DNA from: Bacteroidota bacterium
Lineage (GTDB): Bacteria > Bacteroidota > Bacteroidia > AKYH767-A > OLB10
Length of the DNA: 64,000 nt
Reading direction: 5' to 3'
NCBI GenBank assembly: GCA_016714535.1
Contig: JADKDR010000005.1
Location: 358,966 to 422,965 of the forward strand
A program made the translations under genes and the position numbers. Shown here one piece after another: positions 9,698 through 32,631 of this stretch (position 1 is the first letter of the stretch; each line of letters begins with the position of its first letter). The notes under the pieces were generated by a model. That model was not told the origin of the DNA, made no database searches, and saw nothing but the letters and a program-made list of their open reading frames with translations.

Positions 9698-9720
9698 ATT
9701 TAAATAAATAATTTTAAAAA

Positions 9721-9757: not shown

Positions 9758-9802
9758 TTATCAATAGTCTCTAAGAAAAGTGCGTTAAAGCACCATCACC
9801 GT

Positions 9803-14765: not shown

Positions 14766-15344
14766 ATGTTTAAGTTAAAGCTTGCCACTGACCCACGATG
14801 GGTAAATATTGCAGAAGAAAACATAGAAGAGATATTGATAGATCATGCCTACTGCGAACAAAAGGCTGCAAGTAATGCAATTTCATTAATCATTTTATAT
14901 CCTGAATTTTCGGACTTGGTTGAGTCAATGATTGAAATTGCCCAGGAGGAAATGGCACATTTTAAAATGGTGCATCAACTGTTGTTGCAAAGAGGTATGA
15001 AGCTTGGCAAGTCAAGAAAAGATGAGTATGTAAATTTATTATTGGAGTTTATGCGCAAAGGGGCTAACCTTAATCAAATTATGGTAGACAGGCTGCTGTT
15101 TGCAGCCATGATTGAAGCGCGCAGTTGTGAGCGATTTCGTATACTTAGCGAAAAGCTTACCGATAATTTTCTTGCTGGTTTTTATCGCGATTTAATGATT
15201 AGCGAAGCTAATCATTATACAACCTTCATAAATTTTGCACGCAAATATGGTAAGGAAGATGTTGATCAGCGTTGGGAAGAAATTTTACAATACGAAGCAG
15301 AAATTATGAAGCGCTTTAGTGTGAAGGAAACGATACATGGCTAA
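14766..15344 (+). CDS. miaE: tRNA-(ms2io6A37)-hydroxylase MiaE
   Basis: 192 aa. DHAYCEQKAASNAISLII…EEMAHF matches the di-iron MiaE family signature (DHMYCEQKAA). Confidence 0.75.
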   Translation: MFKLKLATDPRWVNIAEENIEEILIDHAYCEQKAASNAISLIILYPEFSDLVESMIEIAQEEMAHFKMVHQLLLQRGMKLGKSRKDEYVNLLLEFMRKGANLNQIMVDRLLFAAMIEARSCERFRILSEKLTDNFLAGFYRDLMISEANHYTTFINFARKYGKEDVDQRWEEILQYEAEIMKRFSVKETIHG

Positions 15345-15395
15345 TTCCTTTTTGCAGTTAGCATATTTGTTCCCCGATTTTCTTTCTTTTGTCAT

Positions 15396-16688: not shown

Positions 16689-17986
16689 TCGAGGCAGTAT
16701 TATTTACAGTGCTTGCTTTAGGCATGCTTTATGGCATCATAAGATTGCCTTTTTTTAAATTATCCGGGGTTCCAAATAAAATCATTGCAATAATTTTTAT
16801 TCTAAAAATTGGAATCGTTCAGGTACAAGTAAATTTGGCAAAAAAGTATGATGTTAATGCCGACATCTATCATGTGTTTGAAGGCACAAGGCCCTTTGCA
16901 AAATTATTTCTCACAGATAAAACCACTGCCTTTAGTATTTTTTGGGGACAGGCTAATGATGTGCAAGTTAAACCAATTACAAGCAATTTTCCCGGTTGGA
17001 ATCACCGACTTCAAACTCACAATGATACGCGCACTTTAATAAGGCTTAATATGGTTGCCATTCCGCTTCATTGGTTTTATTTTAGTATTATGAATTTGTG
17101 GTGGGCATTTTTTTCGCTTTGTGCTTCAGTGTTTTTGTGTCGTAAAATTCCATCGTTACCTGCATTTGCAATGCTGTATAATAAATCAGCTATCCAGTTG
17201 GCGTTTTTTATTTGCACCACATCACTACCGGGATGTTTGTTTTGGTTTTCGATGGCTTTTAAGGAAACAGTAGCATGGTGTTTCTTTGCCTTGTTTATTA
17301 TAGCTCTTTCTAATGTTATAGCACGGCCGGGTTTTGTCAATATCGCGTGGTTTGTACTTTCTCTGCTCATTTTTACATCAATAAAACTCTATTTTGCAGT
17401 TGCAGTAATGGTATTCTTGCTATTTTATTTTACGGCAAACTATTTTCGAAGATTTAACCCGATAGTTGCTAGTCTGCTTATTTTTGCTTGCATTGTTTCA
17501 TCCTGGATTTTTGCAGAAGTATTTTTAAACTACCATCAGTTTTCTTTGGCAATTTATCAGCAAGCAAACAATACGGTTAATTATGCTGCCAAAGTAGATG
17601 CAAGCACACTATTGCCTTCACTACTTCAAGGTCCATCGGTGTTCGAAATTCTGCTAGCCATTCCCGAAGCAATATTTAGAATTCTTGCGATTCCATTTTT
17701 TCCCGAAACAAATAATGCTAAACTGTTGTTTCCTATTTTAGAGAATTATGTTTTATTTTCCTTGTTATTAATAGGCATGTTTCATTTCAGATATAAAAAG
17801 GAATTTGCATTAATTTCAATTGCTATGCTCTTTTTTGCATTAAGTTCCACTGCACTTATTGGTATAACTACACCCATTATAGGAACATATATTCGGTATA
17901 AGGTTCTTTTTACTCCATTTATTTTATTGGCTCTGGCATTACATATTGATTTAAGTAGTATTAAAATCTTTCGGAAATGGAGTTAA
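16685..17986 (+). CDS. Polytopic membrane protein, paralogue B of the preceding gene
   Basis: 433 aa. Overlaps the upstream stop by 4 nt. Shares the ADIYHV… loop motif and the C-terminal RYKVLFTPF…DL motif. Confidence 0.5.
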   Translation: MIEAVLFTVLALGMLYGIIRLPFFKLSGVPNKIIAIIFILKIGIVQVQVNLAKKYDVNADIYHVFEGTRPFAKLFLTDKTTAFSIFWGQANDVQVKPITSNFPGWNHRLQTHNDTRTLIRLNMVAIPLHWFYFSIMNLWWAFFSLCASVFLCRKIPSLPAFAMLYNKSAIQLAFFICTTSLPGCLFWFSMAFKETVAWCFFALFIIALSNVIARPGFVNIAWFVLSLLIFTSIKLYFAVAVMVFLLFYFTANYFRRFNPIVASLLIFACIVSSWIFAEVFLNYHQFSLAIYQQANNTVNYAAKVDASTLLPSLLQGPSVFEILLAIPEAIFRILAIPFFPETNNAKLLFPILENYVLFSLLLIGMFHFRYKKEFALISIAMLFFALSSTALIGITTPIIGTYIRYKVLFTPFILLALALHIDLSSIKIFRKWS

Positions 17987-18399
17987 AGCAATTGATTAAT
18001 ACTACCACTAAACCCATCATTTTTTTTGATGGTTATTGTAACTTGTGCAATGTTGCAATACAGCTTATTATCAAGCACGACCAACATCAACAATTTTTAT
18101 TTTCTACACTTACAGGCGAGTTTGCTTTGGCCAATAACCTATTTGGTCACATACAAATGGAGCAGGATACCATGGCATTATGGGTTAATAATCGACTATA
18201 TATACGAAGCGATGCCGTAATTGAAATAGCCAAACGCCTTGGCGGATGGTTTGTCATCATTAGTTATACTAAAATATTCCCAAAGTTTATTCGAAATGGA
18301 GTTTACAATATCATAGCAAAAAGCCGGTATAGATTGTTTGGCAAGAGGGCAAATTGTATGATTCCCGACCAGGCACTATTGGCACGATTTGTCAAATAG
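17977..18399 (+). CDS. DCC-family thiol-disulfide oxidoreductase (DUF393)
   Basis: 140 aa. FFDGYCNLCN motif near the N-terminus. Overlaps the upstream gene by 10 nt. Confidence 0.7.
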   Translation: MELKQLINTTTKPIIFFDGYCNLCNVAIQLIIKHDQHQQFLFSTLTGEFALANNLFGHIQMEQDTMALWVNNRLYIRSDAVIEIAKRLGGWFVIISYTKIFPKFIRNGVYNIIAKSRYRLFGKRANCMIPDQALLARFVK

Positions 18400-18508
18400 A
18401 ATACAAGTGGCCGGCATTCGCCTAAAATAATTACACATAAAATTTTGTTAGCATAATATTTGTTTACATTTTGCGTCATTCTTTCTACTCATTAATATTC
18501 AATTTTAA

Positions 18509-19408
18509 ATGGAAAATAATAATTCAAAAAGTGGTAACACCACAAAAGTTGTATTGGGCGTATTACTTGCAGCTTCGCTGGGAGGTAATGTTTACCAAAT
18601 GCAAAACACAAAAACCGAAGTTCAATATGTTCAAGCCAAAGCCGATTCGCTTGTAATTGAAAAAACGGATATTGAAAACGAGCTTAAAGCAACCTACGAT
18701 GAGCTGGATAAATACAAAGGCCAGAATGCCCAGCTTGATAGCCTCCTGGCCGAAGCTAATAGCCGGGTAGATGACCAGAAATTGCGAATTAATCAACTTA
18801 TTAAAACGAGTAAAAATTCGCAAGAGCTGAATTCTAAATTGCAAGCTGAGTTAGCCTCATTGCGCGAAATGCGCGACCAGTATCTGGATAAAATTGATTC
18901 GCTCATGTTGGCAAATCAACAGCTTACAGTTGATAAAGAAAATCTTACGGGCAAAGTGGATGAGTTAACCAAAGACCTCGCATCTACAGTTGACAAGGCA
19001 AGCATTGTTGGAGTAGAGTACGTAAAATTGGCAACATTTAAGAAACGTGGAAATGATAAGTACAGCGTAACTTCGTTGGCTAAGCGTACCAATAAATTTG
19101 AATCTTCGTTTACCATTATGGACAATAAAATAGCCAAGGCTGGAGAAAAGGTAGTATATTTACAAATAACCGAACCAGGTGGCAAGGTACTTGGCAACCG
19201 CAGCGAAGGCTCAAATAAATTTACTGTAAAGGGAAGCAACGAAGAACAACTTTTTACCACCTCTACAAAAATAAATTACAACAATGATAAGCAGGAAGTA
19301 ACCATGAAATATGAAGAAGAAGAGCGCAATTTTGTAGCCGGTGCGTATAAAGTAAATATCTATCTCGATAATATGCTTGTGTCGTCAACAAACATTTTTT
19401 TAAAGTAA
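18509..19408 (+). CDS. Membrane-anchored coiled-coil protein with C-terminal beta-rich domain
   Basis: 299 aa. N-terminal TM segment, about 150 aa of heptad-like Q/E/K/L-rich sequence, then a beta-strand-rich tail. Confidence 0.45.
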   Translation: MENNNSKSGNTTKVVLGVLLAASLGGNVYQMQNTKTEVQYVQAKADSLVIEKTDIENELKATYDELDKYKGQNAQLDSLLAEANSRVDDQKLRINQLIKTSKNSQELNSKLQAELASLREMRDQYLDKIDSLMLANQQLTVDKENLTGKVDELTKDLASTVDKASIVGVEYVKLATFKKRGNDKYSVTSLAKRTNKFESSFTIMDNKIAKAGEKVVYLQITEPGGKVLGNRSEGSNKFTVKGSNEEQLFTTSTKINYNNDKQEVTMKYEEEERNFVAGAYKVNIYLDNMLVSSTNIFLK

Positions 19409-19411
19409 AGC

Positions 19412-20692
19412 TTGGTGAAGATCAAGGCTTTTGCAAGAGGGGTTAAGTGCATTGCCAATCGGACGGCACTGTTTATTGGCTTATGTACCGTTTTGCTTTC
19501 AGCATGTAATCCTTCAAAAAGGACTAAAACTTCTTCGCAAATACAGTTTCCAACGGATACTGCTACAACGATTCATTCTAATAAGGACACCGTCATTGAT
19601 AATACGGAAAAGGGCGAACAAACACTTTCCATGAACTTTGTATTGCCATTTGATTTTGAAGAGAACCTGCAAACTGAAGGCGGCACTGGCAGCGAAACAA
19701 AAGTAGGCTCTGACGGCACTGAGCGATCTGCAGCAGCAATAAGTTTTTATCAGGGATTTCAAATGGCTGCTGCTGATCATGCATCCGAAAAGATAAAACT
19801 TAAAAGCCGTGCAATAGATACCGCTCAAGATTCGCTTTTATTGACAGCAAACTTGATTTTGGATGAAACATATAATGCCTCTTATATTTTTTCTCAGCTG
19901 AACCAGGTGCAGCTCGATCAATTGCAAAAACAAAATAAAATGCATCGTAAGTGGATTGTATGTCTTAATGCAATTCAGCAAGATTGTGAGCAGTGCATTC
20001 AACTCGTTCCCAACAATGCGCTTTTAATAAAGATGGCATCGCAGTATATATTCAAGAACTATGCGGCTGAACAAATTACTTGTTTATATCGCCCTTCGAA
20101 TAATAAAGAAAAAAACCTGGCATTTAGTTTTATTAACCAATTGAGAGGGATGGGCGATAGCTCAACTGTAATTCCATTTGAGTACGGTATAACCAAGGAT
20201 TCGCTCGTATTAAAGAGCAGCAAAACAAAACGGTTGATTATTATTGCAAGCAATGATGAATCGTATGTGTCGGCAGTTTTTAATTGGTTAAAGTATTATG
20301 CAGATAGCGAAAACCTTACGGTTTTCGGAATGCCAACCTGGGAGAATTTCGAATCCATCGATTTTAATCAGTTCCTTAAATTCAATACTACCATTTTTAA
20401 TTCTAACTATGTAAATTACAATAGTCCTGAATTTACGGAGTTCAAGAAAGTATATACCAACCGTTACCACGCGGCACCCACACAGGCAGCTTATCTTGCG
20501 TACTTTTTTACCAAAGGGCTTATTGATATTGGCAACAGCGGTAAGTTAGTAGAATCGGGATTTAGTGAAGAAGATGCTGCCCTGTTTAACAACGATTTGT
20601 TTAATATAAAAGGAACAGGAAAAAATAGATATAGCAACTTAAAAGTACATATACTTAAATTTAAGGATTACAAACTGGTGCCGGTAGAGTAA
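19412..20692 (+). CDS. Hypothetical lipoprotein (possible periplasmic ligand-binding fold)
   Basis: 426 aa. Lipobox LLSAC. Non-ATG start (TTG/GTG) 4 nt after the upstream stop. Confidence 0.45.
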   Translation: MVKIKAFARGVKCIANRTALFIGLCTVLLSACNPSKRTKTSSQIQFPTDTATTIHSNKDTVIDNTEKGEQTLSMNFVLPFDFEENLQTEGGTGSETKVGSDGTERSAAAISFYQGFQMAAADHASEKIKLKSRAIDTAQDSLLLTANLILDETYNASYIFSQLNQVQLDQLQKQNKMHRKWIVCLNAIQQDCEQCIQLVPNNALLIKMASQYIFKNYAAEQITCLYRPSNNKEKNLAFSFINQLRGMGDSSTVIPFEYGITKDSLVLKSSKTKRLIIIASNDESYVSAVFNWLKYYADSENLTVFGMPTWENFESIDFNQFLKFNTTIFNSNYVNYNSPEFTEFKKVYTNRYHAAPTQAAYLAYFFTKGLIDIGNSGKLVESGFSEEDAALFNNDLFNIKGTGKNRYSNLKVHILKFKDYKLVPVE

Positions 20693-20884
20693 GGATAGGC
20701 ACTTTACTAATAGCAATATTGCTCAAGAAGGATATAATTTGACTAATACGGTTTTAAAAAAAACGTAGCTGAAGTTTCATACTTTACATATTGCAAATAT
20801 TAAGTTTAGCCTTTATTAATAATTTAATAATCTTTAGTTTACTTTGTACTAACCTAATTGGTGTCACTTTGCAAAAAGCAATTT

Positions 20885-21559
20885 ATGCACGAAAAGATAT
20901 TGTTGGTAGATGATGATCCGGATATACTTGAGTTTGTAAGTTACAATTTAAGGAAGTCAGATTATGATGTATCTCTAGCCACCAATGGCAAAGAAGCCAT
21001 TGAAGTGGCGCTCAAAGAGCGTCCTGACCTTATCATTCTGGATATCATGATGCCTGTTATGGATGGCATAGAAGCATGCAGACAAATACGAGAAATTCCG
21101 GAACTTAAACATACCCTCATTACCTTTTTAACTGCCCGTACAGAAGAGTATTCGCAAATAGCAGGACTGGATAATGGAGCAGATGATTACATAACCAAGC
21201 CAATTAAACCACGCTTACTTATTAGTAGAGTAAATGCGTTGTTGCGTAGAGTAAACCGCAGTAGCGATGAAACATTGCCACTTCACTTTGGCGACTTACT
21301 CATTAATCGCGAAAAGTATCATGTAATGCTAAAGGGAACCCAAATAAGCCTACCCCGCAAAGAATTTGAATTGTTGAGTTTACTTGCTACCAAACCGGGC
21401 AAAGTGTTTACCCGCGAAGATATTTTGAGTAGAGTATGGGGCGATGACATTGTAGTTGGTGATCGTACGATTGATGTGCATATTCGAAAAATTCGTGAAA
21501 AGTTGGGAGATGACTATATTCGTACCATAAAAGGTATTGGATATAAGTTTGACTTGTAA
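20885..21559 (+). CDS. OmpR-family two-component response regulator
   Basis: Receiver domain (LLVDDDPD…DVSLATNGKEA…DIMMP) plus a winged-helix DNA-binding C-terminus (…TRED…DRTIDVHIRKIREKL). Confidence 0.85.
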   Translation: MHEKILLVDDDPDILEFVSYNLRKSDYDVSLATNGKEAIEVALKERPDLIILDIMMPVMDGIEACRQIREIPELKHTLITFLTARTEEYSQIAGLDNGADDYITKPIKPRLLISRVNALLRRVNRSSDETLPLHFGDLLINREKYHVMLKGTQISLPRKEFELLSLLATKPGKVFTREDILSRVWGDDIVVGDRTIDVHIRKIREKLGDDYIRTIKGIGYKFDL

Positions 21560-21562
21560 GAC

Positions 21563-22498
21563 GTGATTCATTTAGTTTATTCTGCTATAATCTTAATAGT
21601 TGTCGCCATTTGGATGGCCGATAAATATAGACAACGCATTCACCTGAAACGTTTCAGAGATAAACTTTTACAACTTTCCAAATCGTTAGTGCCAGAACAG
21701 CAAACAAACTTTTCAAGCAGTTCGATGCTTAGGTTAATTGAATTGAACATTGAGAAAATTGAAGAAGCGCGCGAAATAGAAATGAATAAACTGCGCAATG
21801 TGGATTCGTACCGAAAGGAGTTTTTATCAAATGTTTCGCATGAATTAAGAACACCCATATTTAATATCGAGGGGTACATACACACCTTGCTTGATGGGGC
21901 TCTTGAAGATAAAAACATTAGCACTTCTTATTTGCGTAAAGCAGCCGAAAACCTTGAGCGTATCACCTCACTCATAGATGACCTTGATGCGATATCGCAA
22001 TTGGAACCCGGCAGGTTTGCACTTGAAATTCGAGAGTTCGATATTGTAAAACTGATTTACGATGTGGCCGAGGATCTTAGGCGCAAAGCCATTCAGAATA
22101 ACTGCTATTTGATTATTAGCACGCATATTGATTCATGTGCAGTATTGGCAGATCGCGAACGTATACGGCAAGTGTTAATCAATTTAGTAAATAACAGCAT
22201 TACTTATGGCAAGCAGGGAGGCACTACTACGCTTTCCTTATCAACTGATGATTCGTATTGTTTTGTCGAAGTAAAAGATGATGGCATAGGCATAAGCGAG
22301 GAGCACCTCCCTCGTATTTTTGAGCGTTTTTACAGGGTTGATAAGGACCGCTCCAGGGTTAAAGGTGGAAGCGGTTTGGGCTTGTCTATTGTAAAGCATA
22401 TTATCGAAGCGCATCAATCAGTTATTCAGGTTGAAAGTAAAAGCAATGCAGGAACCCGATTTACCTTTCGAATTGATAGAAAAACGAATGAGAACTAA
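21563..22498 (+). CDS. Sensor histidine kinase
   Basis: 311 aa. N-terminal TM segment. HisKA H-box SHELRTPI. HATPase N-, G1- and G2-boxes (NLVNNSITY, DDGIGI, GGSGLGLSIV). Begins 4 nt after the response regulator. Confidence 0.85.
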   Translation: MIHLVYSAIILIVVAIWMADKYRQRIHLKRFRDKLLQLSKSLVPEQQTNFSSSSMLRLIELNIEKIEEAREIEMNKLRNVDSYRKEFLSNVSHELRTPIFNIEGYIHTLLDGALEDKNISTSYLRKAAENLERITSLIDDLDAISQLEPGRFALEIREFDIVKLIYDVAEDLRRKAIQNNCYLIISTHIDSCAVLADRERIRQVLINLVNNSITYGKQGGTTTLSLSTDDSYCFVEVKDDGIGISEEHLPRIFERFYRVDKDRSRVKGGSGLGLSIVKHIIEAHQSVIQVESKSNAGTRFTFRIDRKTNEN

Positions 22499-22600
22499 TT
22501 TTTTCGATTGAAGTGGTGATGGAGTGCCTAACAGAAATATTTGATAATGCAATGTGTCATCATCATCATCCTAATCATCTTTAGTAAAGTTAACTTTCAG

Positions 22601-22969
22601 TTATTTACATCCTGCAATATTACATAGCCTTGTCCATTGCAATCCGCTTCGGCCTCTTACACAATTGTATGCCTTATCTATCACCCATTTTGTAGGCATC
22701 TCATTATTCTTAACACTTGTACTAAGTAAAATTTCATTTTTTTCTCGTTTCCAACTTCCTTCTATTAATTCCTTTTCGAAAAATGAGTTTAGATAATAAT
22801 ATTGAAAGCTATTATCATCATGCAGATTTAGTTGTGGCAACGATTGCTCTCCACCACAGTTGGCAAAAGTTCCGATACTGAATTTATCCTCTCTTGTAGC
22901 TACTTTAAACGAAATTAACATTACAAAGGCAACAAGGAAAAAAATAGAATAGCTGATATAGTTTTTCAT
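22601..22969 (-). CDS. Hypothetical secreted protein
   Basis: 122 aa with a signal peptide. Confidence 0.4.
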   Translation of the reverse strand: MKNYISYSIFFLVAFVMLISFKVATREDKFSIGTFANCGGEQSLPQLNLHDDNSFQYYYLNSFFEKELIEGSWKREKNEILLSTSVKNNEMPTKWVIDKAYNCVRGRSGLQWTRLCNIAGCK

Positions 22970-23142
22970 TTAGGTGTATCAGAGTTTAAAGAGCTGACTC
23001 CGCTCTTCTATGTTTTTTTTAAAATAAAGTTGGAACTATTAACAATAATACAACGCAGCAGCTTATAATGTTACAGGTTTTAAAAAATAAGTTTAATTAT
23101 ACCCGGTATGCACGTTCTTCAATAGGTGCCGCAGGGTACTTC

Positions 23143-23275
23143 GGTGTTCGACAAGCCATACAGAGCATTTCGAAGAGCGAGTTGTACAATAACTTGAGAC
23201 ATTGTTTTACAAAACTATCAAGTATCTGCATTGCAAATGCACATGAGTGTGGGACATCCGCATTGCAAATGCGGA
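23143..23275. repeat. Repeat module M1 (~130 bp), copy 1: …caagccataCRGARcatttcg…tacaataacttgaRacatYgttttacaaaac…gcattgcaaatgcRgacgagc
   Basis: About 80% identical by eye to 23425-23535 and 26228-26335. Contains two copies of the near-palindrome gcattgcaaatgc. Confidence 0.7.
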
Positions 23276-23535
23276 CTAATGGGGGAGACTTAACTGTAAC
23301 TATATACGTTGCTTTAACTTTTTACATTGCGTAAGAGTCAACAGACTACATGCATTATTAAGATTTGTGCGAGGTTGCAAGTATTGTATTCTCCCCTCTC
23401 CTGAAGGAGAGGGGCAGGGGGTGAGGTTTTTCAACAAGCCATACGGAACATTTCGAGGCATGAGTTTTACAATAACTTGAAACATCGTTTTACAAAACAA
23501 TCATGAATCCGCATTGCAAATGCAAACGAGCAGTG
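23275..23535. repeat. Composite repeat unit (module M2 + module M1), full copy A
   Basis: About 90% identical over roughly 260 bp to 26055-26335. Starts …ttaactgtaactatatacgttgc and ends …gcattgcaaatgcaaacgagc. Confidence 0.8.
23393..23414. other. GC-rich perfect hairpin inside repeat copy A (cccctctcc-tgaa-ggagagggg), followed by cagggggtgagg
   Basis: 9-bp perfect inverted repeat with a 4-nt loop. The identical sequence recurs at 26171-26192. Confidence 0.7.
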
Positions 23536-23559
23536 GATCCTGATACATTACAATTTTGA

Positions 23560-23630
23560 TTTTTAAACAACTTGAAGCATTGCATTAGAAAACTATCTGG
23601 TATCAGCATCGGATATGCGGACGAGCAAAA
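23560..23630. repeat. Partial M1-variant copy (…aaaactatctggtatcagcatcggatatgcggacgagc)
   Basis: Shares …tacaaaactatctggtatcag.atc..atatgcggacgagc with 24575-24632. Confidence 0.6.
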
Positions 23631-23701
23631 GGATTTTTTTGTTTTTGGAAATCTTTTAAACTAACTTTGTACAAAAACAATGCAGTTAAATAAATTTAAA
23701 A

Positions 23702-23911
23702 ATGCACACAGTACATCCACACTACATCACTGACAATACAGGAAAAAAAATATCCGTGGTGCTACCAATGCAAGAGTTTAAAGCTATAATGGAAGAATTG
23801 GAAGAGTTAGCAGATATTAAACTTTATGATGAAGCCAAAGAATCCAACGAGCCTTCTATTCCTATTGACGATGCTTTCAATATAATTGAAGCAAAACGCA
23901 AAGCGAAGTAA
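23702..23911 (+). CDS. Type II antitoxin, Phd/YefM-like
   Basis: 69 aa. KKISVVLPMQEFKAIMEELEELADI resembles the Phd/YefM core. Its stop overlaps the ATG of the downstream RelE/ParE gene (taATG). Confidence 0.6.
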   Translation: MHTVHPHYITDNTGKKISVVLPMQEFKAIMEELEELADIKLYDEAKESNEPSIPIDDAFNIIEAKRKAK

Positions 23912-24165
23912 TGGTTTACAATGTTACTTTAAAGAAACGAGCCATTAAAGCTCTTCTACAAATTAATGAGCCATATTATTCCGAGATCAAGAAGGCTATT
24001 TATAGCCTTGCCAATATTCCGCGCCCTATTGGATATAAAAAACTAAAAGGCAGAGATGGGTAGCGTATCCGTGTGTCAGATTGCCGCATTATTTACGAAA
24101 TTTTTGACGATGTCCTTATTGTTGATGTTATTGACCTCGGGCACAGAAAAGATATTTACGAATAA
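23911..24165 (+). pseudogene. RelE/ParE-family toxin gene interrupted by an in-frame TAG at 24061-24063
   Basis: Reads MVYNVTLKKRAIKALLQINEPYYSEIKKAIYSLANIPRPIGYKKLKGRDG-(TAG)-RIRVSDCRIIYEIFDDVLIVDVIDLGHRKDIYE. The amber replaces the conserved aromatic of the G(Y)xxRVGDYRIIY motif. Confidence 0.7.
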
Positions 24166-24373
24166 AAGCGAAAAACTCTTTTACATGGGTTTTAATTTTA
24201 ATTACTATCCCACACTCTTCAACCTGTTCCACATAGTATGTCGAGTTTCTATGAAAAGTCATTTTTGACGCGTCATCAAAGGGAGGCAAGCTCAAGTCAG
24301 CATTTTGTAACTTCATAATAATCTCCAGCACCGCTTCAAGTAAAGTCTTCTTACTTTTTAAAAATCTCAGCAC
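24128..24373 (-). CDS. Questionable 81-aa ORF antisense to the 3' end of the toxin pseudogene
   Basis: From the ORF track only. No recognisable motif. Overlaps the toxin gene by about 38 nt. Confidence 0.15.
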   Translation of the reverse strand: MLRFLKSKKTLLEAVLEIIMKLQNADLSLPPFDDASKMTFHRNSTYYVEQVEECGIVIKIKTHVKEFFAFIRKYLFCARGQ

Positions 24374-24555
24374 TAGCTGGATTTGAATGTATATTATTTT
24401 TCTTTATTTCACAAACTTGTTAGTGGGAATTTCTTTTTCTTAATTGCCTTCTTCCCAATTCCAAATTTCATCTTTCTTAATAGTAACAGTAGTAACGAAC
24501 TTGTTCTGCCACTGGTTTTGTAAAGGCTTGCGAGAAATTCTCCTACATTAAAATA

Positions 24556-24720
24556 TGTTTTTACAACGACTGGAGAAATTGGTTTACAAAACTATCTGGT
24601 ATCAGTATCACATATGCGGACGAGCGGGCGTGTAGCGCTAAGAATATACGTTGCTTGTGCTTTTAAACTTGTGCACGAGTCACTCTCTGATTGCCTTGGC
24701 TGTGACTCGCCCGAGGCTAA
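24556..24720. repeat. Partial repeat copy (M1-variant end joined to M2-like start …aatatacgttgcttgtgctttt…)
   Basis: Shares gcggacgagcgg and atatacgttgc segments with the full copies. Confidence 0.55.
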
Positions 24721-24724
24721 ATGA

Positions 24725-25519
24725 TTAGTGTTTAATAACAATTTTGTAAGTTTTTATTTGTTCTCCTTGAGTAAGTGAGACAAAATAAATTCCATTATTG
24801 ATTTTTGAAACATCAAGCGATATTGAGGCACTAACTCCTGCAAATATTTTATCAAGTATTTTTTCACCAAGAGAATTGTATAATTGAACTGTCATGTTTC
24901 GCAAGTCAAATGGATGGTTGATAAATAATTCATTGTTTGCGGGGATAGGAAATATAGAATAATTTGGAATTTGAGTTTCTATTAAATCTAAAGCGCAACT
25001 GCCATAAGTGCAATTGCCAAAAACTGAAGAAATGCTGTCTGTAAAACAACTTAAGGCGCAATTTCCTGTGTTTACATAATTGGCATATACTATAAAGCCA
25101 TAATCTAATACAAATCCATAAGTTAAATCTCCAATACCTTGAACCCATTGAATAGGGTCTTGGTACATTTGATAGAAGGGTATACGGGTAAATTTGATTC
25201 TCTTACGTGGAACTCCGCCCAAAATAAGCGTATCAACTGAATCAACGGCAAGAGCATAAGTGTTGGGAAAGGGTGTGTTTGTAACAGCATTAAATGTAAA
25301 CGAATCTCCTACATTCAAGGTAAAATCATATAATAAATTTAGTGAATTGGGATCTGTACCAGCAAAAACTTTATTCGAATCAGTATGAATATAAATCCAA
25401 GGTTTAAGACACAGGGAATCAAAAATTTCTGATTTTGACGAATCAACTTTTTGCAAGAACTTATTATTGACTATAGTATCTCCAGTAATTTGAGTTTGCT
25501 GATAGGTACAGACACACAA
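24725..25519 (-). pseudogene. N-terminally truncated fragment of a T9SS C-terminal-domain (secreted) protein gene
   Basis: 264-aa ORF with a typical CTD (…MTVQLYNSLGEKIL…GIYFVSLTQGEQIKTYKIVIKH). No signal peptide and no ATG. The in-frame upstream sequence hits a stop after about 25 codons. No other minus-strand ORF between 25.5 and 26.1 kb. Confidence 0.6.
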
Positions 25520-25956
25520 AGGTGGCTGACCACTTCCAGGACTATACCAAAATGTTGCAAATTGTGACCAATGTGAATGATTAGGTGCAAACTCTATTCC
25601 TGTCTGAGCAAAAGACTTTTAAAAATAAAAATGTGAATAAAAATTAAAGTGATTGTGGTAATGCTCAGATGTTAATTTTATAAAACGTATACGGTTGGCG
25701 ATGTACATCATTTATAATTAATCCTTAATATACAACAAAGATATGAAAAAAAACAATACTAGCAAACATGGTTGAGCCCTTGCTTCCCCATGAGTTATCG
25801 CTGGTGGCTCTTAGCAATACTATTCAACTTTTTTAATAGTTTTATAGACTAAAATTCAATGCTTTTGCATAGTATTGAAATTTTCAAAATCCCAGTATGC
25901 AAATTTTTTCGATTTAGTTTGGGATTGTTATATTTTTAAGTTGATAGAAGAATTAA

Positions 25957-26040
25957 CCTTAACTATATACGTTGTGTTAGGAATTTATGAGCCAATGGCA
26001 AGGGCGCTTGGGTGAGCAAGGAAGATTTGAAATATTTTTC
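25957..26040. repeat. Partial M2-like repeat copy (ttaaccttaactatatacgttg…)
   Basis: A 22-bp match to the M2 start, then diverged. Confidence 0.4.
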
Positions 26041-26054
26041 GGGTATGTTTTATT

Positions 26055-26335
26055 TTGGTTGTGGACTTTAGGGAGGCTTAACTGTAACTATATACGTTGC
26101 TGCAGCTTTTTACATTACGATTGATTCAACAGTCTGCATGCATTGTTAAGACTTGCACGAGGCTGCGTGTATTGTATTCTCCCCTCTCCTGAAGGAGAGG
26201 GGCCGGGGGTGAGGTTTAAATCGCTGTTCAACAAGCCATACGGAACATTTCGCAGCATGAATTTTACAATAACTTGAAACATCGTTTTACAAAACAATCA
26301 TGAATCCGCATTGCAAATGCGGACGAGCGGGGGGG
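26055..26335. repeat. Composite repeat unit (M2 + M1), full copy B, in direct orientation relative to copy A
   Basis: …ggcttaactgtaactatatacgttgc…ctcccctctcctgaaggagaggggccgggggtgagg…caacaagccatacggaacatttcg…gcattgcaaatgcggacgagcggggggg. Confidence 0.8.
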
Positions 26336-26668
26336 ATTTCATTATTCGTGGGACGGGTTTCCTTTAAAAGGTAGCCACCTAAAACATCAAATTGGGGGTT
26401 TGAAACAGCTTTTACGCAGTTTAAAACGCATTTTGCCTAGCAAGCTGAAAGCTCATTCTTAAGTTTTATTAATTTTTGACACTGTTGGCGAACATAGATT
26501 TAAAAATAATCTACTTGATAATCAGTAATATAAAAAATATTTTAGTACTTGGTGTAACAAGGTACTGTTTTTTGCATTTATATTTGCATAACATTTTACT
26601 AGGTAAGGCATTGTACAGGCTTATACCCAGTATTATAAAAATCAAACTCAGTAAAACACAAATAAGCA

Positions 26669-27010
26669 ATGAGTAATTTAGAGAACACACAGGCTCAAAT
26701 GCGCAAAGGGGTTTTAGAGTTTTGCATATTAAGCATCATTTCCCAAGGCGAAATTTATCCAAGCGATATAATCAGCAAAATGAAGGATGCCAAACTGTTA
26801 GTAGTTGAAGGAACATTGTATCCACTGCTTACGAGATTAAAAAATGCAGGACTTTTAAATTACCGTTGGGTAGAGAGTAACAGCGGGCCACCGCGCAAGT
26901 ATTATTCGCTGACACCAATTGGCGAAAATTTTTTAAATGAATTAAAACAAACCTGGTCTGAATTGGTGCAGGCCGTAAACGAAACCACAAATAAAACCAT
27001 CATACAATGA
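26669..27010 (+). CDS. PadR-family transcriptional regulator
   Basis: 113 aa. Winged helix (LEFCILSIISQGEIYPSDI…EGTLYPLLTRLKNAGLL…KYYSLT). Confidence 0.85.
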   Translation: MSNLENTQAQMRKGVLEFCILSIISQGEIYPSDIISKMKDAKLLVVEGTLYPLLTRLKNAGLLNYRWVESNSGPPRKYYSLTPIGENFLNELKQTWSELVQAVNETTNKTIIQ

Positions 27011-28707
27011 ACAAGACCGTAACAGTAAATATAGGAGGCATGGTGTTTCATATAGAAGAAAGTGCCTATGAATCGCTTGGAAAATATCTGAATGCAATAC
27101 GCGGCCACTTCACCAGCAGCGATGGGCGCGAAGAAATAATGCAGGATATAGAAAGTCGCATAGCTGAGATGCTGCAGCAGCGCATTGGTACCACTCGCCA
27201 AGTGGTTGAATTACATGATGTAGAAGAAGTAATAACCGTGATGGGTAAGCCTGAAATGTTTGAAGGCACTACCGACAGCGATATCAAGAAAGAAGACACT
27301 GCATACGATATGCCACTAAATGGTGCTCGTAAAATGTATCGCGATGAAGACGAAAAAGTAATTGCAGGTGTATGTGCCGGATTATCGTACAGGCTAGGAA
27401 TAGATCCTGCATGGCTTCGCGTAGCATTCGTATTATTATTTTTATTTGGTACCGGAGGTTTTTGGATCTACTTAATCCTTTGGATTGTATTACCAAAAGC
27501 AGTAACAACTGCACAAAAGCTTGAAATGCGAGGTAAGCCTGTAAATGTGGAGTCGATAAAAAAAAATTTTAATTCGTACCAAACTGAGCAAACCGGAATT
27601 CAACGTTTCTTCGAAACCCTTGGCGAAATTATTAAAATAGGGTTTAAGATTTTCGCTTACATAGCAGCAGTGTTCTTTGGTATAATTGGAGTAATCGTAT
27701 TAATAGCTCTGGTAGTTGGACTTTTCGGAATATTAGGTGTTACCGGCATAAGTATGCCGGTGTTTATGACCAATATGTTCATCAGTCAGTCGCAGCAGTT
27801 TTGGGTTATTGCAGCTACGCTGCTTCTTATAGGTGTGCCTGTTTTATATATTCTTTACAAAATTTTCAAATGGATATTTAAAGTAAAGACATCGTACCCA
27901 TGGGTTCGTGCAAGCGCTCTTTTTCTAATGCTTATGGGAGTTGCAATTGCCTTTTATTGCGCATTCGATATCGGACAGGAAATGGCCTACGAAGGAGGTA
28001 ATCGCACTTCGGTAAACATTGCACAACCTATGCGCGATACGGTAGGTATAGCATTGTTACCTCAAGATGAAAGTATGAATATGATTCGAAATAATTTTTC
28101 GGTTGGCTTTAATAGCAAAAGGTGGAGTGTACGTAATGGCGACAAGATTTTTAATCTTGAAGACAATGTGCAGCTTAATATTGAAAGGTCGATGGACGAT
28201 AAGTTTGAATTAGTTCAAGTATCAAAAGCAAAGGGCAGGAGCGAAGAGGATGCTATGCAGAATGCTAATGCAATCATATACAGAATGGAGCAGCGCGACA
28301 ATAAGTTTTTCTTTGGTAGTCGTTTACAAATAGATCAAAAACGTAAGTTCCGTTTTCAGCGAGTACGTTTGGTATTGCGTGTACCTGTTGGTAAAGTTAT
28401 TTATCTGGAGCCCGGAAGCGAAGATGTATTTTATGATTTGAAAAATGTAACTAATACGTGGGATAATGATATGGTAGGGCATTACTGGCTTATGACCGAT
28501 AAGGGTTTAAAATGTCTTGATTATGATTTTAAAAAAGAAGGATCAGAATCTGAATCATACAATGAAAATGACGATTGGAATAGTGACACCACCAGAAGCA
28601 CCTTGAATATTAATGGAAAAGATGCCAAAGTTGAGATTAATAAAAATGGAGTTACCATTACTACAGATAATGATACTATCAGTATAAATTCTAATAGTTC
28701 AAAATAG
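27007..28707 (+). CDS. PspC-domain membrane protein with a large C-terminal domain
   Basis: 566 aa. PspC motif VIAGVCAGLSYRLGIDPAWLRVAFVLL. Several TM segments. Overlaps the PadR stop by 4 nt. Confidence 0.8.
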   Translation: MNKTVTVNIGGMVFHIEESAYESLGKYLNAIRGHFTSSDGREEIMQDIESRIAEMLQQRIGTTRQVVELHDVEEVITVMGKPEMFEGTTDSDIKKEDTAYDMPLNGARKMYRDEDEKVIAGVCAGLSYRLGIDPAWLRVAFVLLFLFGTGGFWIYLILWIVLPKAVTTAQKLEMRGKPVNVESIKKNFNSYQTEQTGIQRFFETLGEIIKIGFKIFAYIAAVFFGIIGVIVLIALVVGLFGILGVTGISMPVFMTNMFISQSQQFWVIAATLLLIGVPVLYILYKIFKWIFKVKTSYPWVRASALFLMLMGVAIAFYCAFDIGQEMAYEGGNRTSVNIAQPMRDTVGIALLPQDESMNMIRNNFSVGFNSKRWSVRNGDKIFNLEDNVQLNIERSMDDKFELVQVSKAKGRSEEDAMQNANAIIYRMEQRDNKFFFGSRLQIDQKRKFRFQRVRLVLRVPVGKVIYLEPGSEDVFYDLKNVTNTWDNDMVGHYWLMTDKGLKCLDYDFKKEGSESESYNENDDWNSDTTRSTLNINGKDAKVEINKNGVTITTDNDTISINSNSSK

Positions 28708-28780
28708 TAAATTAACGAAATCGTCTTGTGATTATCTCTCAATAATTCTAAATCAAAATACTTAATTAAAAAGATAGAAA

Positions 28781-28951
28781 ATGGAAACTTTAATGCTTGT
28801 TCAATATTTTCTGGTATTTGTAGTAGTGGTAGCTGCATTACCAGGTACTAGTTTGCTTTACCAGCATTTGTTCGATGAGGAAACAGAAGTTAGTGAAGGG
28901 AAACAAAATTTTCAACCGGCACTTCAAAATAGTCTTTCTATGAGTATTTAA
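28781..28951 (+). CDS. Possible small membrane protein (56 aa)
   Basis: Translated by eye as METLMLVQYFLVFVVVVAALPG…. One TM segment. Below the ORF-track size cutoff. Confidence 0.25.
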   Translation: METLMLVQYFLVFVVVVAALPGTSLLYQHLFDEETEVSEGKQNFQPALQNSLSMSI

Positions 28952-28981
28952 GAAATGTTTGGTAGTTTATAGTAATTAAAA

Positions 28982-29017
28982 AAGCCCGTTAATCATTTTA
29001 ACGGGCTTAATTTTTTT
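28982..29017. terminator. Bidirectional rho-independent terminator between convergent genes
   Basis: aagcccgttaa…ttaacgggctt stem followed by a T7 run. Confidence 0.6.
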
Positions 29018-29033
29018 AACGCCTATCAGAATA

Positions 29034-29673
29034 TTAATTCCTTAAATCAATTACCTCATCTTTAGGATAAGAAGTTTTATTAAATGTAAAAATAGAATCT
29101 TCTAAGGTTACATTTGGTGCAAAGCTATCAACCTTGTAGGTAAGATTGGTTCCGCTTTTTTCAAATATTACTGCTTGCGCTATATACTTTTCTGCTTTAT
29201 TAATGGTTAATTGAATTTTTATAAAATTTCGTTTTGCATCTTCAGGAACCAATTCAATTATTTGAAAATTTTTACCAGCTACAATTTTTTCTTCAATAAA
29301 TCTTGACTTAAATCCTTTTTCATAAATGGTAAAAATATTTTGAGGAGTAATACTGTTTTCATCCGTTTTTTGATCATTGATCTGCACCTCATTTGCTTCT
29401 TTCAAATAATTCCAAACTACTTTGCCATCGCTTATTATTTCCTGATCGCCAAGCAACACAAGATATTTGGTGCCTTTTAATTTGATACTACCTGTTTGAT
29501 TTTGTACAGTCTTATTGGCTTTATCACTTACTTTAACAGTAAACTTTGCAGCAAATGCTTTTAAACGAACGGTATTTGGTACTTACCGATTTCAAAATAT
29601 CTTGTGCTTTCTTATCCGTTTGTGCATTTACAACACTCGTTGCAAGCATCAGAATTATTAATATCCTCAACAT
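29034..29673 (-). CDS. LolA-like outer-membrane lipoprotein carrier protein, frameshifted at a T4/A4 homopolymer (~29559-29562); probably a sequencing artefact
   Basis: N-terminal part MLRILIILMLATSVVNAQTDKKAQDILKSVSTKYRSFK (ATG at 29673) continues in a different frame as AFAAKFTVKV…LLGDQEIISDG…, which is the 141-aa track ORF. Confidence 0.55.
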
Positions 29674-29802
29674 GTTAATCATTAACTTCGTATTTTGATT
29701 GGAATTCAAACAATTGGTTTATTTGGAAGCAAAAGTATTAATAAATGTGCCAAACTTGTAAAGATAAGCTGCAGTGCTTGCACGTTCATTATTCCTTCAA
29801 TA

Positions 29803-32631
29803 TTACTTATGCACTTCAATTTTACAAAAGTTGGTTTTGCCTCTAGCTGCAACCCGCGCTATGTATAGTCCATTAACCACTTCTTGCCCCGAATTATCTT
29901 TTAAATTCCACGTAGCAAAACCAACATTACTTTTATTGTCAGTAGGTAAGGTATTTATCAAGCGACCGTTTAAGTCGTAAATCATTATTTCAGAATTATT
30001 ACCTCCGGTAGAATTAAAGTACATAAGTGTTACCTCTGAGCTTGCAGGGTTAGGGAAGCAAGTCAAATAAGCAGGGTTTGGCAAAATAAATGATTCCTCT
30101 ACAAAAACGGGGGTAAATGCAGGTAATTTGCTATCGGTATATAAACGGTATTCGCCCTCAGTCAACCCAATGGCATCCTGCACATGGGAAACAGTTACAC
30201 TATCACCGGTAAAATATTCATACCACCAACCTGTATGTTGAAAATAAGGGACTATGGATAATGGATATATATCAAAATTGCCAAGTACCACAGCATTCAT
30301 TTGTGAATCATTCAATCGTATTGATTTTCCGCCACCATTTAAAGACATATTGAAACTGTTCGTTTTAAATACCTGAAAATCTTTTTTTAATTTCATCAGG
30401 TTTCCAGTTACATCATATAAATGCTTGCGTGCCGGTTGGTAATAATAAAACCACTTTAGTGGTTTTGGGGCTGTGTTGCCACCACCAAAAAGCAAGCTAA
30501 CATCATAGCCTAATTCTCCAAACTGCCATAGCATTTTAGGACCCGGTACAGTATAAAAAAATGCTGAAGCTAGTTCCATTCGCGCAAGTGCGTTTATCGT
30601 ATCCTTCAAATTATAGTTTGGATTGGTGCTGTTGCCAAAGGTAATATTCTTAAACATCAACCGTTGCTCATCGTGACTTTCCATATAACCTACAAGGTGA
30701 GGAGAATTATATCCTCTGTTTTGATAAGATACACCACTAAAGTTGCTATTGCTTAACCAACCCATTGTTGCTTCATTGTAATTATGAGTCATATTACCCC
30801 AAAGCATCATACCATAATCGGCCAGCTCTTTTTCTTCTTGATTGTCGGCAAACATTTCAAGTATTACATAGCTGGTAGGATCTATATTCCACATCACATC
30901 AGCTATACGTTTCAGATTATCAATGCGTGCACCATCATATGCATTCCAAGCTGTAATATTGCCAAGGGTGTTCTTTTGAGTAAATCCTTTTGCCAAATCG
31001 AAGCGATATCCATCTACTTTAAATTCATTAATCCAAAATTCAACCACGCGATCAACAAAATATTCGGTGGCAGGTGCATCGTGATTCATATCGTAACAAA
31101 CATTAAAATCATGTTTAGGTTGTTGATTAAACCATGGGCTGTTTGCTGCAGGCTGACTATTGCCGGCATCCCAGTATAGTTGCACCATGGGGCTTTGCCC
31201 GCATGAGTGGTTAAGCACAATATCAGAAATTACCGCAATGCCACGAGCGTGGCACGTATCAATAAATTCTTTAAGCTTATCTTTAGTTCCATAATATTTG
31301 TCCACTGCAAAGTAGTACGATGGATTATAACCCCAACTATTGTTGCCTTCAAATTCGTTAACAGGCATGAGCTCAATGGCATTAATTCCGAGCACTTGTA
31401 AATACTCAAGTGTGTCGAGCAAAGTTTGAAAATTTCGTGGACCCACAAAATCGCGAATACACAATTCATAAATTATCAAATCAGTTTTTGCCGGCTTGGT
31501 AAAATTTGTAACGGTCCATGTATACGGAGTTTGTGCAGTTTGCAAAACTGAAACGATACCTTGCGTTTTTCCGGTAGGGTAGGGTGTGGGGTTAGGATAG
31601 GTGGCAAGCGATATTCCTGCATCATTATTTGGGTCAACAATTTTATGGCAATAAGGATCGCCAATTCGCAACTCACCATCAACAAAGTATTGATAGGTAT
31701 ATTCCTCACCAGGTAGTAAATTATTTAACTGAACCCAATAACGGTCGCCTGCCGGAGTGCGATGCATAAAATACAAACTATCGGTAGTCCACGAATTAAA
31801 ACTGCCAAGCACATAAACGAAATTTTTGCTGGGAGCATACAGATTGAGTATCACTGCGCTGTCATTTAAATAGGTAATACCATCGAGGGTATTTGTTGGC
31901 AATGGTGCTATTACCTGTTGTGGGTTTACAACAATTATTATGGTATCGTAAGAAGTAGTAATACCATCATTGGCTTCGAATACTACTTGATTATTTCCTG
32001 ATTGATTAAAGGTGATATTGGTTGCAAGCGTATCGCTTGCACTTTGGTTTGCTTGTAATACACCGTTTACAAGAAAGCTTAAATCTGCATTCGCGTTGCA
32101 TATACCTGTAACATTAAGATTGCTTCCTTGTGCAACAATCAATGGTTGATTGAATGATAGAGCCGGATCAGTAATTTTTACATTAAGGCCTGCTGTATAA
32201 ACAGGGATAAACATATCACTGCCATCGGCATTGCGTCCAACAACACTTCCGGTGGTATTACGAAATACAAATGCAAGACTAAGTATTGTTTCGTTTGCAG
32301 GCACATTGTAATAACTGCGTATGTGATATTTAATTCTATAAAGATTATTTCCAAGCGAGGTCATGAGTACATTAGTATCGGCCACTCCCCATTGGCTCTT
32401 TACATATTTCCAATCGCTAGGACCAGAACTTAAATTGGTAATAACTCCGGTATGAGCATAGATTGGGGGTGGAGTTTGAGCCAGTGCACCATTTCCTTTA
32501 GTTGCATCGTATATGATTGTAATAGTATCTGTATCTGTACAAAAATAGGGTGACCATGTAAGTGGATTGTTTTGAGCAGAGGCCAACAGGTAAAAACTTA
32601 AAACCAATGATAACAAAGTTATTTTTTTCAT
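29803..32631 (-). CDS. GH13-family alpha-amylase/pullulanase-like glycoside hydrolase with Ig-like domains and T9SS C-terminal domain
   Basis: 942 aa. Signal peptide. GH13 catalytic region (…DGYRFDLAKGF…, …MESHDE…). CTD …EIMIYDLNGRLINTL…. Confidence 0.8.
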   Translation of the reverse strand: MKKITLLSLVLSFYLLASAQNNPLTWSPYFCTDTDTITIIYDATKGNGALAQTPPPIYAHTGVITNLSSGPSDWKYVKSQWGVADTNVLMTSLGNNLYRIKYHIRSYYNVPANETILSLAFVFRNTTGSVVGRNADGSDMFIPVYTAGLNVKITDPALSFNQPLIVAQGSNLNVTGICNANADLSFLVNGVLQANQSASDTLATNITFNQSGNNQVVFEANDGITTSYDTIIIVVNPQQVIAPLPTNTLDGITYLNDSAVILNLYAPSKNFVYVLGSFNSWTTDSLYFMHRTPAGDRYWVQLNNLLPGEEYTYQYFVDGELRIGDPYCHKIVDPNNDAGISLATYPNPTPYPTGKTQGIVSVLQTAQTPYTWTVTNFTKPAKTDLIIYELCIRDFVGPRNFQTLLDTLEYLQVLGINAIELMPVNEFEGNNSWGYNPSYYFAVDKYYGTKDKLKEFIDTCHARGIAVISDIVLNHSCGQSPMVQLYWDAGNSQPAANSPWFNQQPKHDFNVCYDMNHDAPATEYFVDRVVEFWINEFKVDGYRFDLAKGFTQKNTLGNITAWNAYDGARIDNLKRIADVMWNIDPTSYVILEMFADNQEEKELADYGMMLWGNMTHNYNEATMGWLSNSNFSGVSYQNRGYNSPHLVGYMESHDEQRLMFKNITFGNSTNPNYNLKDTINALARMELASAFFYTVPGPKMLWQFGELGYDVSLLFGGGNTAPKPLKWFYYYQPARKHLYDVTGNLMKLKKDFQVFKTNSFNMSLNGGGKSIRLNDSQMNAVVLGNFDIYPLSIVPYFQHTGWWYEYFTGDSVTVSHVQDAIGLTEGEYRLYTDSKLPAFTPVFVEESFILPNPAYLTCFPNPASSEVTLMYFNSTGGNNSEIMIYDLNGRLINTLPTDNKSNVGFATWNLKDNSGQEVVNGLYIARVAARGKTNFCKIEVHK

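Follow-up and report, generated by a model that had tools for sequence, protein, structure and literature searches.

Direct repeats with a predicted triplex motif form a local array in a variable spacer of a Bacteroidota genome

Mosaic clusters of intergenic repeats are known from several bacteria, including the neisserial intergenic mosaic elements and minimal mobile elements, the bacterial interspersed mosaic elements (BIMEs) of Escherichia coli and the BOX A-B-C elements of pneumococci. These families have tens to hundreds of dispersed copies per genome and usually contain inverted-repeat parts. Here we describe a cluster of two repeat modules, M1 and M2, in a 64,000-nt stretch (the window) of contig JADKDR010000005.1, from a metagenome-assembled genome (MAG) of a Bacteroidota bacterium (GCA_016714535.1). 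The spacer that holds the cluster separates a histidine-kinase gene from a PadR-PspC operon. The modules constitute a new sequence family, for which no relatives were found in the collections searched. Their kind is already known, namely modular intergenic repeats at a variable locus with a motif of the BoxC/TM type.

Such motifs are class-II G/C-rich triplex motifs, which are widespread and were first named BoxC and later PIT elements (Holder et al. 2015, PMC4666352). As single strands they form stable triplexes in vitro, and promoter or terminator activity was not seen (PMC4666352). The E. coli loci that carry them are more rearranged than control spacers, and the authors did not detect formation of the TM(ECO) triplex in vivo (PMC4666352). 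Our search found no literature on the motif after Holder et al. 2015.

The window contains five copies of M1 (about 95-118 bp) plus tail fragments and four copies of M2 (31-150 bp). All of them are confined to positions 23141-26340 and lie on the plus strand without exception. The array consists of the following pieces.

23141-23255, plus strand: M1a, a full type-I M1 (blastn, 81-84% identity to M1b and M1e; nhmmer, E 3e-33)
23256-23291, plus strand: M1 tail fragment (3' hairpin and G-rich tail), fused to M2a (repeat scan; nhmmer model positions 84-119)
23283-23429, plus strand: M2a, with the conserved start TTAACTGTAACTATATACGTTGC and the triplex motif (87% identity to M2b)
23430-23541, plus strand: M1b, a full type-I M1 (core 91% identical to M1e, with a 59-nt identical tract)
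23544-23636, plus strand: M1c, a type-II M1 (identities given below)
24518-24544, plus strand: type-I M1-tail remnant (blastn, nhmmer)
24545-24636, plus strand: M1d, a type-II M1 (blastn, nhmmer)
24639-24718, plus strand: M2d, a diverged 5' part of M2 (68%; repeat scan, blastn, nhmmer)
25918-26070, plus strand: degenerate short unit made of a tail-like stretch, an M2 start, a middle containing GGGTGAG and an M1-tail remnant (blastn, nhmmer)
26071-26217, plus strand: M2b, with a triplex motif at 26181-26214 (repeat scan, blastn)
26221-26339, plus strand: M1e, a full type-I M1 and the last unit of the array (blastn, nhmmer)

The composite copies at 23270-23536 and 26060-26333 were aligned by blastn with 85.5% identity over 276 columns (E 9e-77; 84% globally). 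An earlier note on this DNA, made from the sequence alone, had described two composite copies of about 260 bp in direct orientation. The orientation is as described, whereas the identity is lower than the approximately 90% given there; the start sequence and the G/C-rich hairpin of M2 were found as the note had them. A 37-nt degenerate M1 pattern, built from the positions common to all M1 copies, matched five times in the window and never in 100 shuffles. In a repeat scan of the whole window, M1/M2 was the sole non-coding repeat family in the 64 kb. Hidden Markov models (HMMs) of the two modules (nhmmer) gave no match outside 23142-26339 in the window and none among 70 other comparison loci. 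Tandem Repeats Finder returned nothing above chance on the island. Neither the repeat scan nor blastn found inverted matches among the modules, and all copies are direct, in agreement with the previous judgment that the ends are not inverted. A miniature inverted-repeat transposable element (MITE) with terminal inverted repeats (TIRs) was rejected on this ground and because the window has no copies outside the cluster.

The same picture was obtained from public collections. The M1 pattern used for these scans (24 fixed bases common to five of five copies) had no match in GTDB species genomes, JGI metagenomes and IMG/VR. The GTDB set searched includes neither this genome nor one closely related to it. 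The M2 pattern had none in JGI metagenome contigs and IMG/VR viral contigs, and two further M1 patterns had none in viral contigs. A blastn search of the island against plasmids and phages returned no repeat copies; the triplex motif alone was matched. Within the window and the public collections searched, the unit therefore occurs only here, a result that the earlier note had named as one that would speak for a locally duplicated intergenic segment. A separate 20-nt match to the M2 start in a giant-virus contig was dismissed as chance.

The M1 copies fall into two types. The type-I copies (a, b and e) are 79-91% identical across their common core, whereas the type-II copies (c and d) lack the first ~25 nt of type I and show 76-79% identity to one another and 66-72% to type I. 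The starts of M1a and M1b are 283 nt apart (23147 and 23430). M1 runs straight into M2 at three junctions and M2 straight into M1 at two, which indicates a broken head-to-tail array, not a 260-bp unit with defined ends as proposed before. Two of the M1 copies proposed previously have been redrawn. The one placed at 24556-24720 comprises an M1 at 24545-24636, and its remainder is a cut M2 (24639-24718). The one placed at 25957-26040 is actually an M2 start (25949-25979) and degenerate DNA, followed by an M1-tail remnant (26041-26070). M2d ends ~15 nt short of the expected start of the triplex motif and 7 nt from the stop codon of a neighboring gene for a cargo protein of the type IX secretion system (T9SS).

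Larger blocks of the array are also duplicated. The M1b tail plus M1c (23514-23626) corresponds to the type-I remnant plus M1d (24518-24625) with 73% identity over 113 nt, and a tail plus M2 start at 25918-25974 corresponds to 26038-26099 with 71% identity. Differences between the outer copies are unevenly distributed, with 21 mismatches in 109 positions of the M2 5' part and 8 in 156 positions of the triplex motif plus M1 (p = 5e-4). These two copies also share tracts without any difference, which are 59, 35, 26 and 25 nt long. Conservation within M2 is highest in an imperfect palindrome, GTAAC-TATATAC-GTTGC, at 23297-23311, 25960-25974 and 26085-26099, with a variant at 24639-24653. It has the look of a site for a dimeric DNA-binding protein.

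From its sequence pattern, the G/C-rich hairpin of M2 is a predicted triplex motif of the BoxC/PIT/TM kind.

23393-23426, plus strand: class-II G/C-rich intrastrand triplex motif, CCCCTCTCC-TGAA-GGAGAGGGG-CA-GGGGGTGAGG (sequence pattern; PMC4666352)

A second copy is located at 26181-26214 in M2b, and the second loop reads C[A/C] across the copies. The ITxF definition (PMC4666352) comprises a pyrimidine block, a loop, a purine block, a loop and a reverse-Hoogsteen block on one strand, with stems of at least 8 nt and loops of 1-6 nt. Both copies have this block order and these stem and loop sizes. In class II, the third block is read antiparallel, with G*G, A*A or T*A pairing to the purine block. 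When GGAGAGGGG is set against the reversed GGGGGTGAGG, 9 of 9 triads are of the allowed types (C-G*G, T-A*A and T-A*T). The exact TM(ECO) consensus, CCCTCNCCC-N3-6-GGGNGAGGG-N3-GGGNGAGGG, is not matched by the motif. Since block sequence, register and second loop all differ, it is not TM(ECO) proper but a sequence variant within this kind. The former suggestion of a REP/BIME-like element set was therefore only partly right, in that the hairpin belongs to a classical kind of small intergenic repeat. The pattern CCCCTCTCC-N4-GGAGAGGGG-N2-GGGGGTGAGG was found in 57 IMG/VR contig stretches, always with unrelated flanks. There was no copy in ~88 kb of related Bacteroidota loci, compared with two in the window. 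Some of the IMG/VR contigs (L005, L034, L041, L058 and others) carry three to four copies on the same strand, 0.2-0.6 kb apart, and extra GGTGAGG half-sites flank some of the copies.

The array lies in a spacer that differs from that of the nearest relative.

22499-26512, no strand assigned: variable spacer, from the histidine-kinase stop codon to the conserved block upstream of padR, a probable promoter and operator (blastn and alignments against L060-L062)
22601-22969, minus strand: intact open reading frame (ORF) of 122 aa, in the part of the spacer to the left of the repeats; its N-terminus resembles a signal peptide, and no family was matched

The nearest relative, a Logan assembly (loci L060-L062), has a PspC protein that is 86% identical and is collinear with 15000-31839 of the window (>16 kb) at ~81% nucleotide identity. 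A PspC-based search of GTDB species genomes found no relative. Homology to the Logan assembly ends exactly at the histidine-kinase stop codon (22496-22498) and returns at ~26513, at the block upstream of padR. Between these points there are 4014 bp here and ~280 bp in the relative. Local alignment of the relative's spacer with each module, evaluated against shuffles, gave nothing significant. The comparison of synteny suggested in the earlier note, run here against this one relative, thus finds ~280 unrelated bp in place of the 4014 bp. The spacer also holds the 122-aa ORF and its edges do not lie at repeats, so that the variable segment extends beyond the repeat array and is larger than the island first noted. 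For the protein of the 122-aa ORF there is no exact copy on record, and PADLOC matched no defence system among the island proteins.

The block upstream of padR reads TTGATAATCAG...TTTAGTACT..GTGTAACAAGGTAC and is followed by a -7 box, TATATTTG, at 26579 (window 26513-26600). It is kept in L060 (7810-7900) and in a relative of 51% identity, L063 (about 9480-9560). Judging from its sequence, it is probably a promoter plus a palindromic PadR operator.

Two gene segments are bracketed by pieces of the repeats. The first is a fragment of a toxin-antitoxin (TA) module.

23654-24178, plus strand: XRE-RelB-ParE module fragment, 525 bp (80% nucleotide identity to L064-L070 over exactly this span; Pfam)
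From 23654, plus strand: last ~39 nt of an otherwise missing XRE gene (gene content of L064-L070)
23702-23911, plus strand: RelB-like antitoxin (PF18506, E 1e-7)
23911-24165, plus strand: ParE/RelE toxin (PF05016, E 6e-9)
24179-24517, no strand assigned: 339 bp without repeat or family match, holding only an 81-aa minus-strand ORF (Pfam and PADLOC scans)

The fragment starts inside the XRE gene, 18 nt past the end of M1c. An antitoxin gene and a toxin gene with matching domains are adjacent, as in a type II TA module, and the toxin gene is broken by an in-frame TAG at 24061-24063, which replaces TAC (Tyr) in the codon comparison. The pair and its amber codon had been recognized before, as a Phd/YefM antitoxin with a RelE/ParE toxin, and both are confirmed here, with an antitoxin that is RelB-like (PF18506). 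The antitoxin has hundreds of homologues at 80-88% identity in MAGs of Chitinophagaceae and Saprospiraceae. In other genomes its gene stands between those for XRE and ParE, and the contexts of this XRE-RelB-ParE trio vary. This level of identity across hundreds of clusters suggests frequent horizontal spread. The conserved XRE(HTH_31)-RelB-ParE trio was seen in L064-L070 (e.g., L067, 5621-6464), that is, in other Bacteroidota (Chitinophagaceae and Saprospiraceae MAGs, JGI and ENA contigs), and its neighborhoods there are unrelated.

The second segment is a gene on the opposite strand.

24725-25743, minus strand: T9SS-cargo gene (sorting domain PF18962/TIGR04183), with its own predicted promoter

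An opposite-strand T9SS-cargo gene had been noted here, and the sorting domain was found. It had been taken to be truncated at the N-terminus. The predicted promoter has a Bacteroidetes-type -7 box, TATCTTTG, at 25743-25736 with a TTG at a spacing of 19, and an ATG at 25711 precedes a hydrophobic signal-peptide core followed by KSFAQ. An in-frame TAA is present at 25619-25621, the hydrophobic core is readable in another frame only, and the breaks are located in A/T runs. Promoter, ATG and signal-peptide core are all kept; the gene is thus of full length and interrupted at A/T runs, and its 5' end has not been lost. The same assembly splits secY (61006-62176) into ORFs at 61006-61590 and 61649-62176, with a frame change at an A5 run, and rplB (about 53300-54131) is frameshifted, with the L2 N-terminus in another frame. 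These frameshifts point to homopolymer indel errors in the assembly, and the breaks in the T9SS-cargo gene may therefore be sequencing errors as well. The locus-tag series of the assembly (prefix IPO27) probably belongs to MAGs made from long reads of activated sludge. As a practical warning, apparent pseudogenes that are based on frameshifts in this assembly are not trustworthy.

The window is rich in T9SS-cargo genes, with others at 3276-4964, 7205-8290 and 29803-32631. Two tandem paralogous genes for T9SS cargo with an M43 peptidase lie at 8435-11086 and have a stretch of 75 nt, at 9257 and 10628, that is 73% identical. A 35-nt inverted repeat (86% complementary) has its arms 22 kb apart, at 7265-7299 and 29527-29561. 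The former arm lies in the N-terminal part of the plus-strand ORF from 7205, and the latter at the start of a minus-strand gene or immediately upstream of it.

We consider it about an even call that M1/M2 is a lineage-restricted non-coding repeat (M1 of about 115 bp, M2 of about 150 bp) whose local array is decaying, and that recombination in this hypervariable spacer has both used the array as a substrate and left it as a scar. We read the repeats as not being a machine of their own. The units would have multiplied and eroded via unequal crossing-over, slippage and gene conversion between direct copies, and illegitimate or one-sided-homology recombination would have attached foreign DNA to repeat ends or right beside them. 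The non-B DNA motif of M2 may raise the local rate of breaks or rearrangements, and the identical tracts of the outer copies would let the 2.8 kb that they bracket be lost or duplicated in a RecA-dependent manner. The role of the triplex motif, the direction of the change (gain here or loss in the relative) and the neutrality of the repeats are what we infer.

Several observations favor this account. The copies are all direct and local, 66-91% identical and arranged in nested duplications. The TA fragment and the self-contained T9SS-cargo gene are each bracketed by like repeat pieces, and the whole spacer is an insertion or deletion relative to the nearest relative. The mosaic identity of the outer copies fits gene conversion. 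M2d is cut just before the position of the triplex motif, at the end of the T9SS-cargo gene, and the TA fragment is cut inside a gene beside a repeat end. The motif in M2 is of a kind for which an association with local instability has been published (PMC4666352). The idea of a recombination hot-spot, raised in the earlier note, gains from the size difference of the spacers, the abutment of the TA fragment on a repeat end and the mosaic identity.

Other points weigh against it. The search for copies covered the 64-kb window and the public collections, so that the family may be dispersed in the genome. Copies at 66-80% identity are still recognizable, which could reflect selective constraint and not neutral decay; likewise, the triplex motif plus M1 could have diverged less because of a function, and not through gene conversion. 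The link between motif and instability is a correlation in E. coli, where the triplex was undetected in vivo (PMC4666352), and its action in this organism is conjectural. The comparison has one close relative only, with which either a gain of the array here or a loss there would fit.

It is unlikely, though worth weighing at length, that the M2-M1 combination is a non-autonomous mobile element without inverted ends, resembling palindrome-associated transposable elements (PATEs) of the IS200/IS605 type or IS91-like elements, with nested self-insertions and sometimes with cargo. The ends are indeed not inverted, and units abut head to tail. The M1 end consists of a short hairpin and a conserved GACGAGC tail, after which the sequence differs between copies, and 25918-26070 resembles an internally deleted unit that keeps the M2 start and the M1 tail. 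However, the window has 48 ORFs of 150 aa or more, and a direct scan of 39 of them found no recombinase or transposase; most of the remaining ones lie within 15-22.5 kb, which is syntenic with L060, whose called genes show no recombinase family. Transposase, TnpB and integrase were thus not found in the 64 kb. The copies are restricted to 3.2 kb of the window in a single orientation and have no copies in the public collections searched, no common sharp boundaries and no target-site duplications. Rfam gave no match with the window at gathering thresholds or with 22900-26700 at E<=5, apart from a spurious tmRNA match. When folded as single-stranded DNA, neither module was better than shuffles (z -1.65 to +0.88 for M1e, M1c, M2b and M2d); the stem of the triplex motif alone folds. 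With respect to PATEs and omega RNA of the IS200/IS605 type, a hairpin was seen at the M1 3' end only.

A second alternative, for which we hold out little expectation, is an integrase-free landing pad, in which a repeat destabilized by the triplex motif captures and sheds gene segments via homology-anchored illegitimate recombination. Such a pad could do the work of an integron while needing neither attC sites nor IntI. In a variant of it, M1 could be the site of a recombinase encoded elsewhere.

More improbable is that M1, and perhaps M2, represents the genes or leaders of a new family of small or cis-acting RNAs that were duplicated in tandem, and a structured small-RNA family, one of the options of the earlier note, found no support. 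All M1 copies have a short 3' hairpin, with one C-G to T-A double change and one G-U pair. Between the outer copies M1 is more conserved than the 5' part of M2, and M1c and M1e are upstream of plus-strand genes. In contrast, RNAalifold on the five M1 copies gave a consensus of only -3.8 (plus strand) and -7.9 (minus strand) kcal/mol, with a single compensatory change; most stem pairs either are invariant or, in several cases, break with no compensation. Five copies are a sample of low power for covariation. The fold z-scores are -1.3 to -2.9 for whole units and ~0 for M1c. Neither a promoter (Bacteroidetes-type or sigma-70-type) nor a terminator was found at a conserved position of the copies, the sigma-70 and terminator scan being at chance level. 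ARAGORN detected no tRNA or tmRNA, Rfam has no family match as described above, and the close relative lacks the sequence entirely.

A coding function of the repeat unit was also considered and rejected. The minus-strand ORF across M2b/M1e and its paralogue differ by 4 synonymous and 10 non-synonymous changes, which indicates that the ORF across M2/M1 is not coding. In a word-indexed protein search this ORF matched itself only, and an exact-protein look-up of the ORF annotated there had no hit. A profile built from the two copies and searched against 1.84 billion protein representatives returned, besides itself, only one low-complexity protein and peptides that triplex motifs encode.

We regard it as slightly more doubtful still that a site-specific system uses the repeats for recombination, either in an integron-like array or by the tandem accretion of integrative elements at an att site, with a recombinase that is elsewhere or lost. 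It is true that repeats in the same orientation alternate with short gene segments, including a TA module, which is typical cargo, that the M1 length of 95-118 bp is within the attC size range, and that RYYYAAC occurs at the start of M2a, M2b and M1e. However, with an attC site defined as an inverted pair of R'' (RYYYAAC) and R' (GTTRRRY) 57-141 bp apart, no complementary RYYYAAC...GTTRRRY pair 50-150 nt apart with at most one core mismatch was found on either strand of 22484-26501. GTTRRRY occurs three times on the plus strand of this region, never at a repeat end, and is not enriched (0.75 vs 0.98 per kb). The modules do not form hairpins as single strands, and neither a tyrosine nor a serine recombinase came up in the scan described above. 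Duplicated att sites would be shorter and less diverged than these repeats, which are also absent from the boundaries of the insertion or deletion. The cassettes have their own promoters, one of them is reversed, and the TA insert is cut within a gene and not at a repeat core. An integron or attC array, which the earlier note had thought the locus to resemble, therefore found no support, given the missing core pairs, the lack of single-strand folding and the failure to find a recombinase in the 64 kb.

Least probable of all is that the arrangement is in part an artefact of collapsed or chimeric repeats in an error-prone MAG. Mis-joins classically occur at repeats, and indel errors affect essential genes of this assembly (secY at an A5 run, rplB). 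However, substitutions separate the copies by 7-35%, well beyond what errors would produce, which marks them as separate loci rather than a single sequence that was collapsed. Between 26473 and 27284, a stretch that takes in the final 40 bp of the spacer, an independent ENA assembly matches at 100%, and both flanks are collinear with the relative. The rest of the probability we give to none of these accounts.

If the decaying-array account is true, the locus is a further case, from a poorly sampled Bacteroidota lineage, of accessory DNA gathering around short repeats between conserved genes. It would also place a BoxC/TM-type motif in such a spot outside the studied Proteobacteria and Cyanobacteria, with modest support for the link between motif and instability. 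It reveals no new mechanism.

Compared with known systems, the array shares with integron arrays and clusters of attC sites lacking integrases (CALINs) the ~100-bp repeats in the same orientation that alternate with gene segments, one of them a TA module, and the lack of an integrase found nearby. In contrast to them, it has no attC core pairs or single-strand hairpins, its repeats also abut without cassettes, its cassettes have their own promoters and the TA piece is cut inside a gene. PATEs derived from IS200/IS605 and IS91-type ends, as generally known, are similar in having no TIRs, a small hairpin near one end and a head-to-tail arrangement. They differ in that we see no transposase or TnpB in the window, no Rfam match, no hairpins at both ends and no dispersed copies here. 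The TA fragment is like the three-gene XRE-RelB-ParE module of Bacteroidota in its antitoxin (80-88%) and its DNA (80% over 525 bp), whereas the XRE gene is lost save for its last ~39 nt and the toxin has TAG for TAC.

The mosaic families of Neisseria, E. coli and pneumococci are closer in organization. They and the present array consist of modular short non-coding units in varying order and completeness, located between conserved genes with differing content; the array differs in that it forms one visible cluster, is entirely direct and has no relative in the collections searched. The triplex motif of M2 differs from TM(ECO) in its blocks (CCCCTCTCC/GGAGAGGGG/GGGGGTGAGG here and CCCTCNCCC/GGGNGAGGG/GGGNGAGGG there) and in its second loop (2 nt here and 3 nt there). 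It also differs in its host, a Bacteroidota MAG, and in its setting inside a larger lineage-specific repeat, with two copies in 64 kb. In common with BoxC/PIT/TM(ECO), the motif has three blocks on one strand, of which the C-rich and the purine block, each of 9 nt, are separated by a loop and the G-rich reverse-Hoogsteen block follows after a second, short loop. Like them it is intergenic and very widely distributed with unrelated flanks, and the kind is associated with variable loci.

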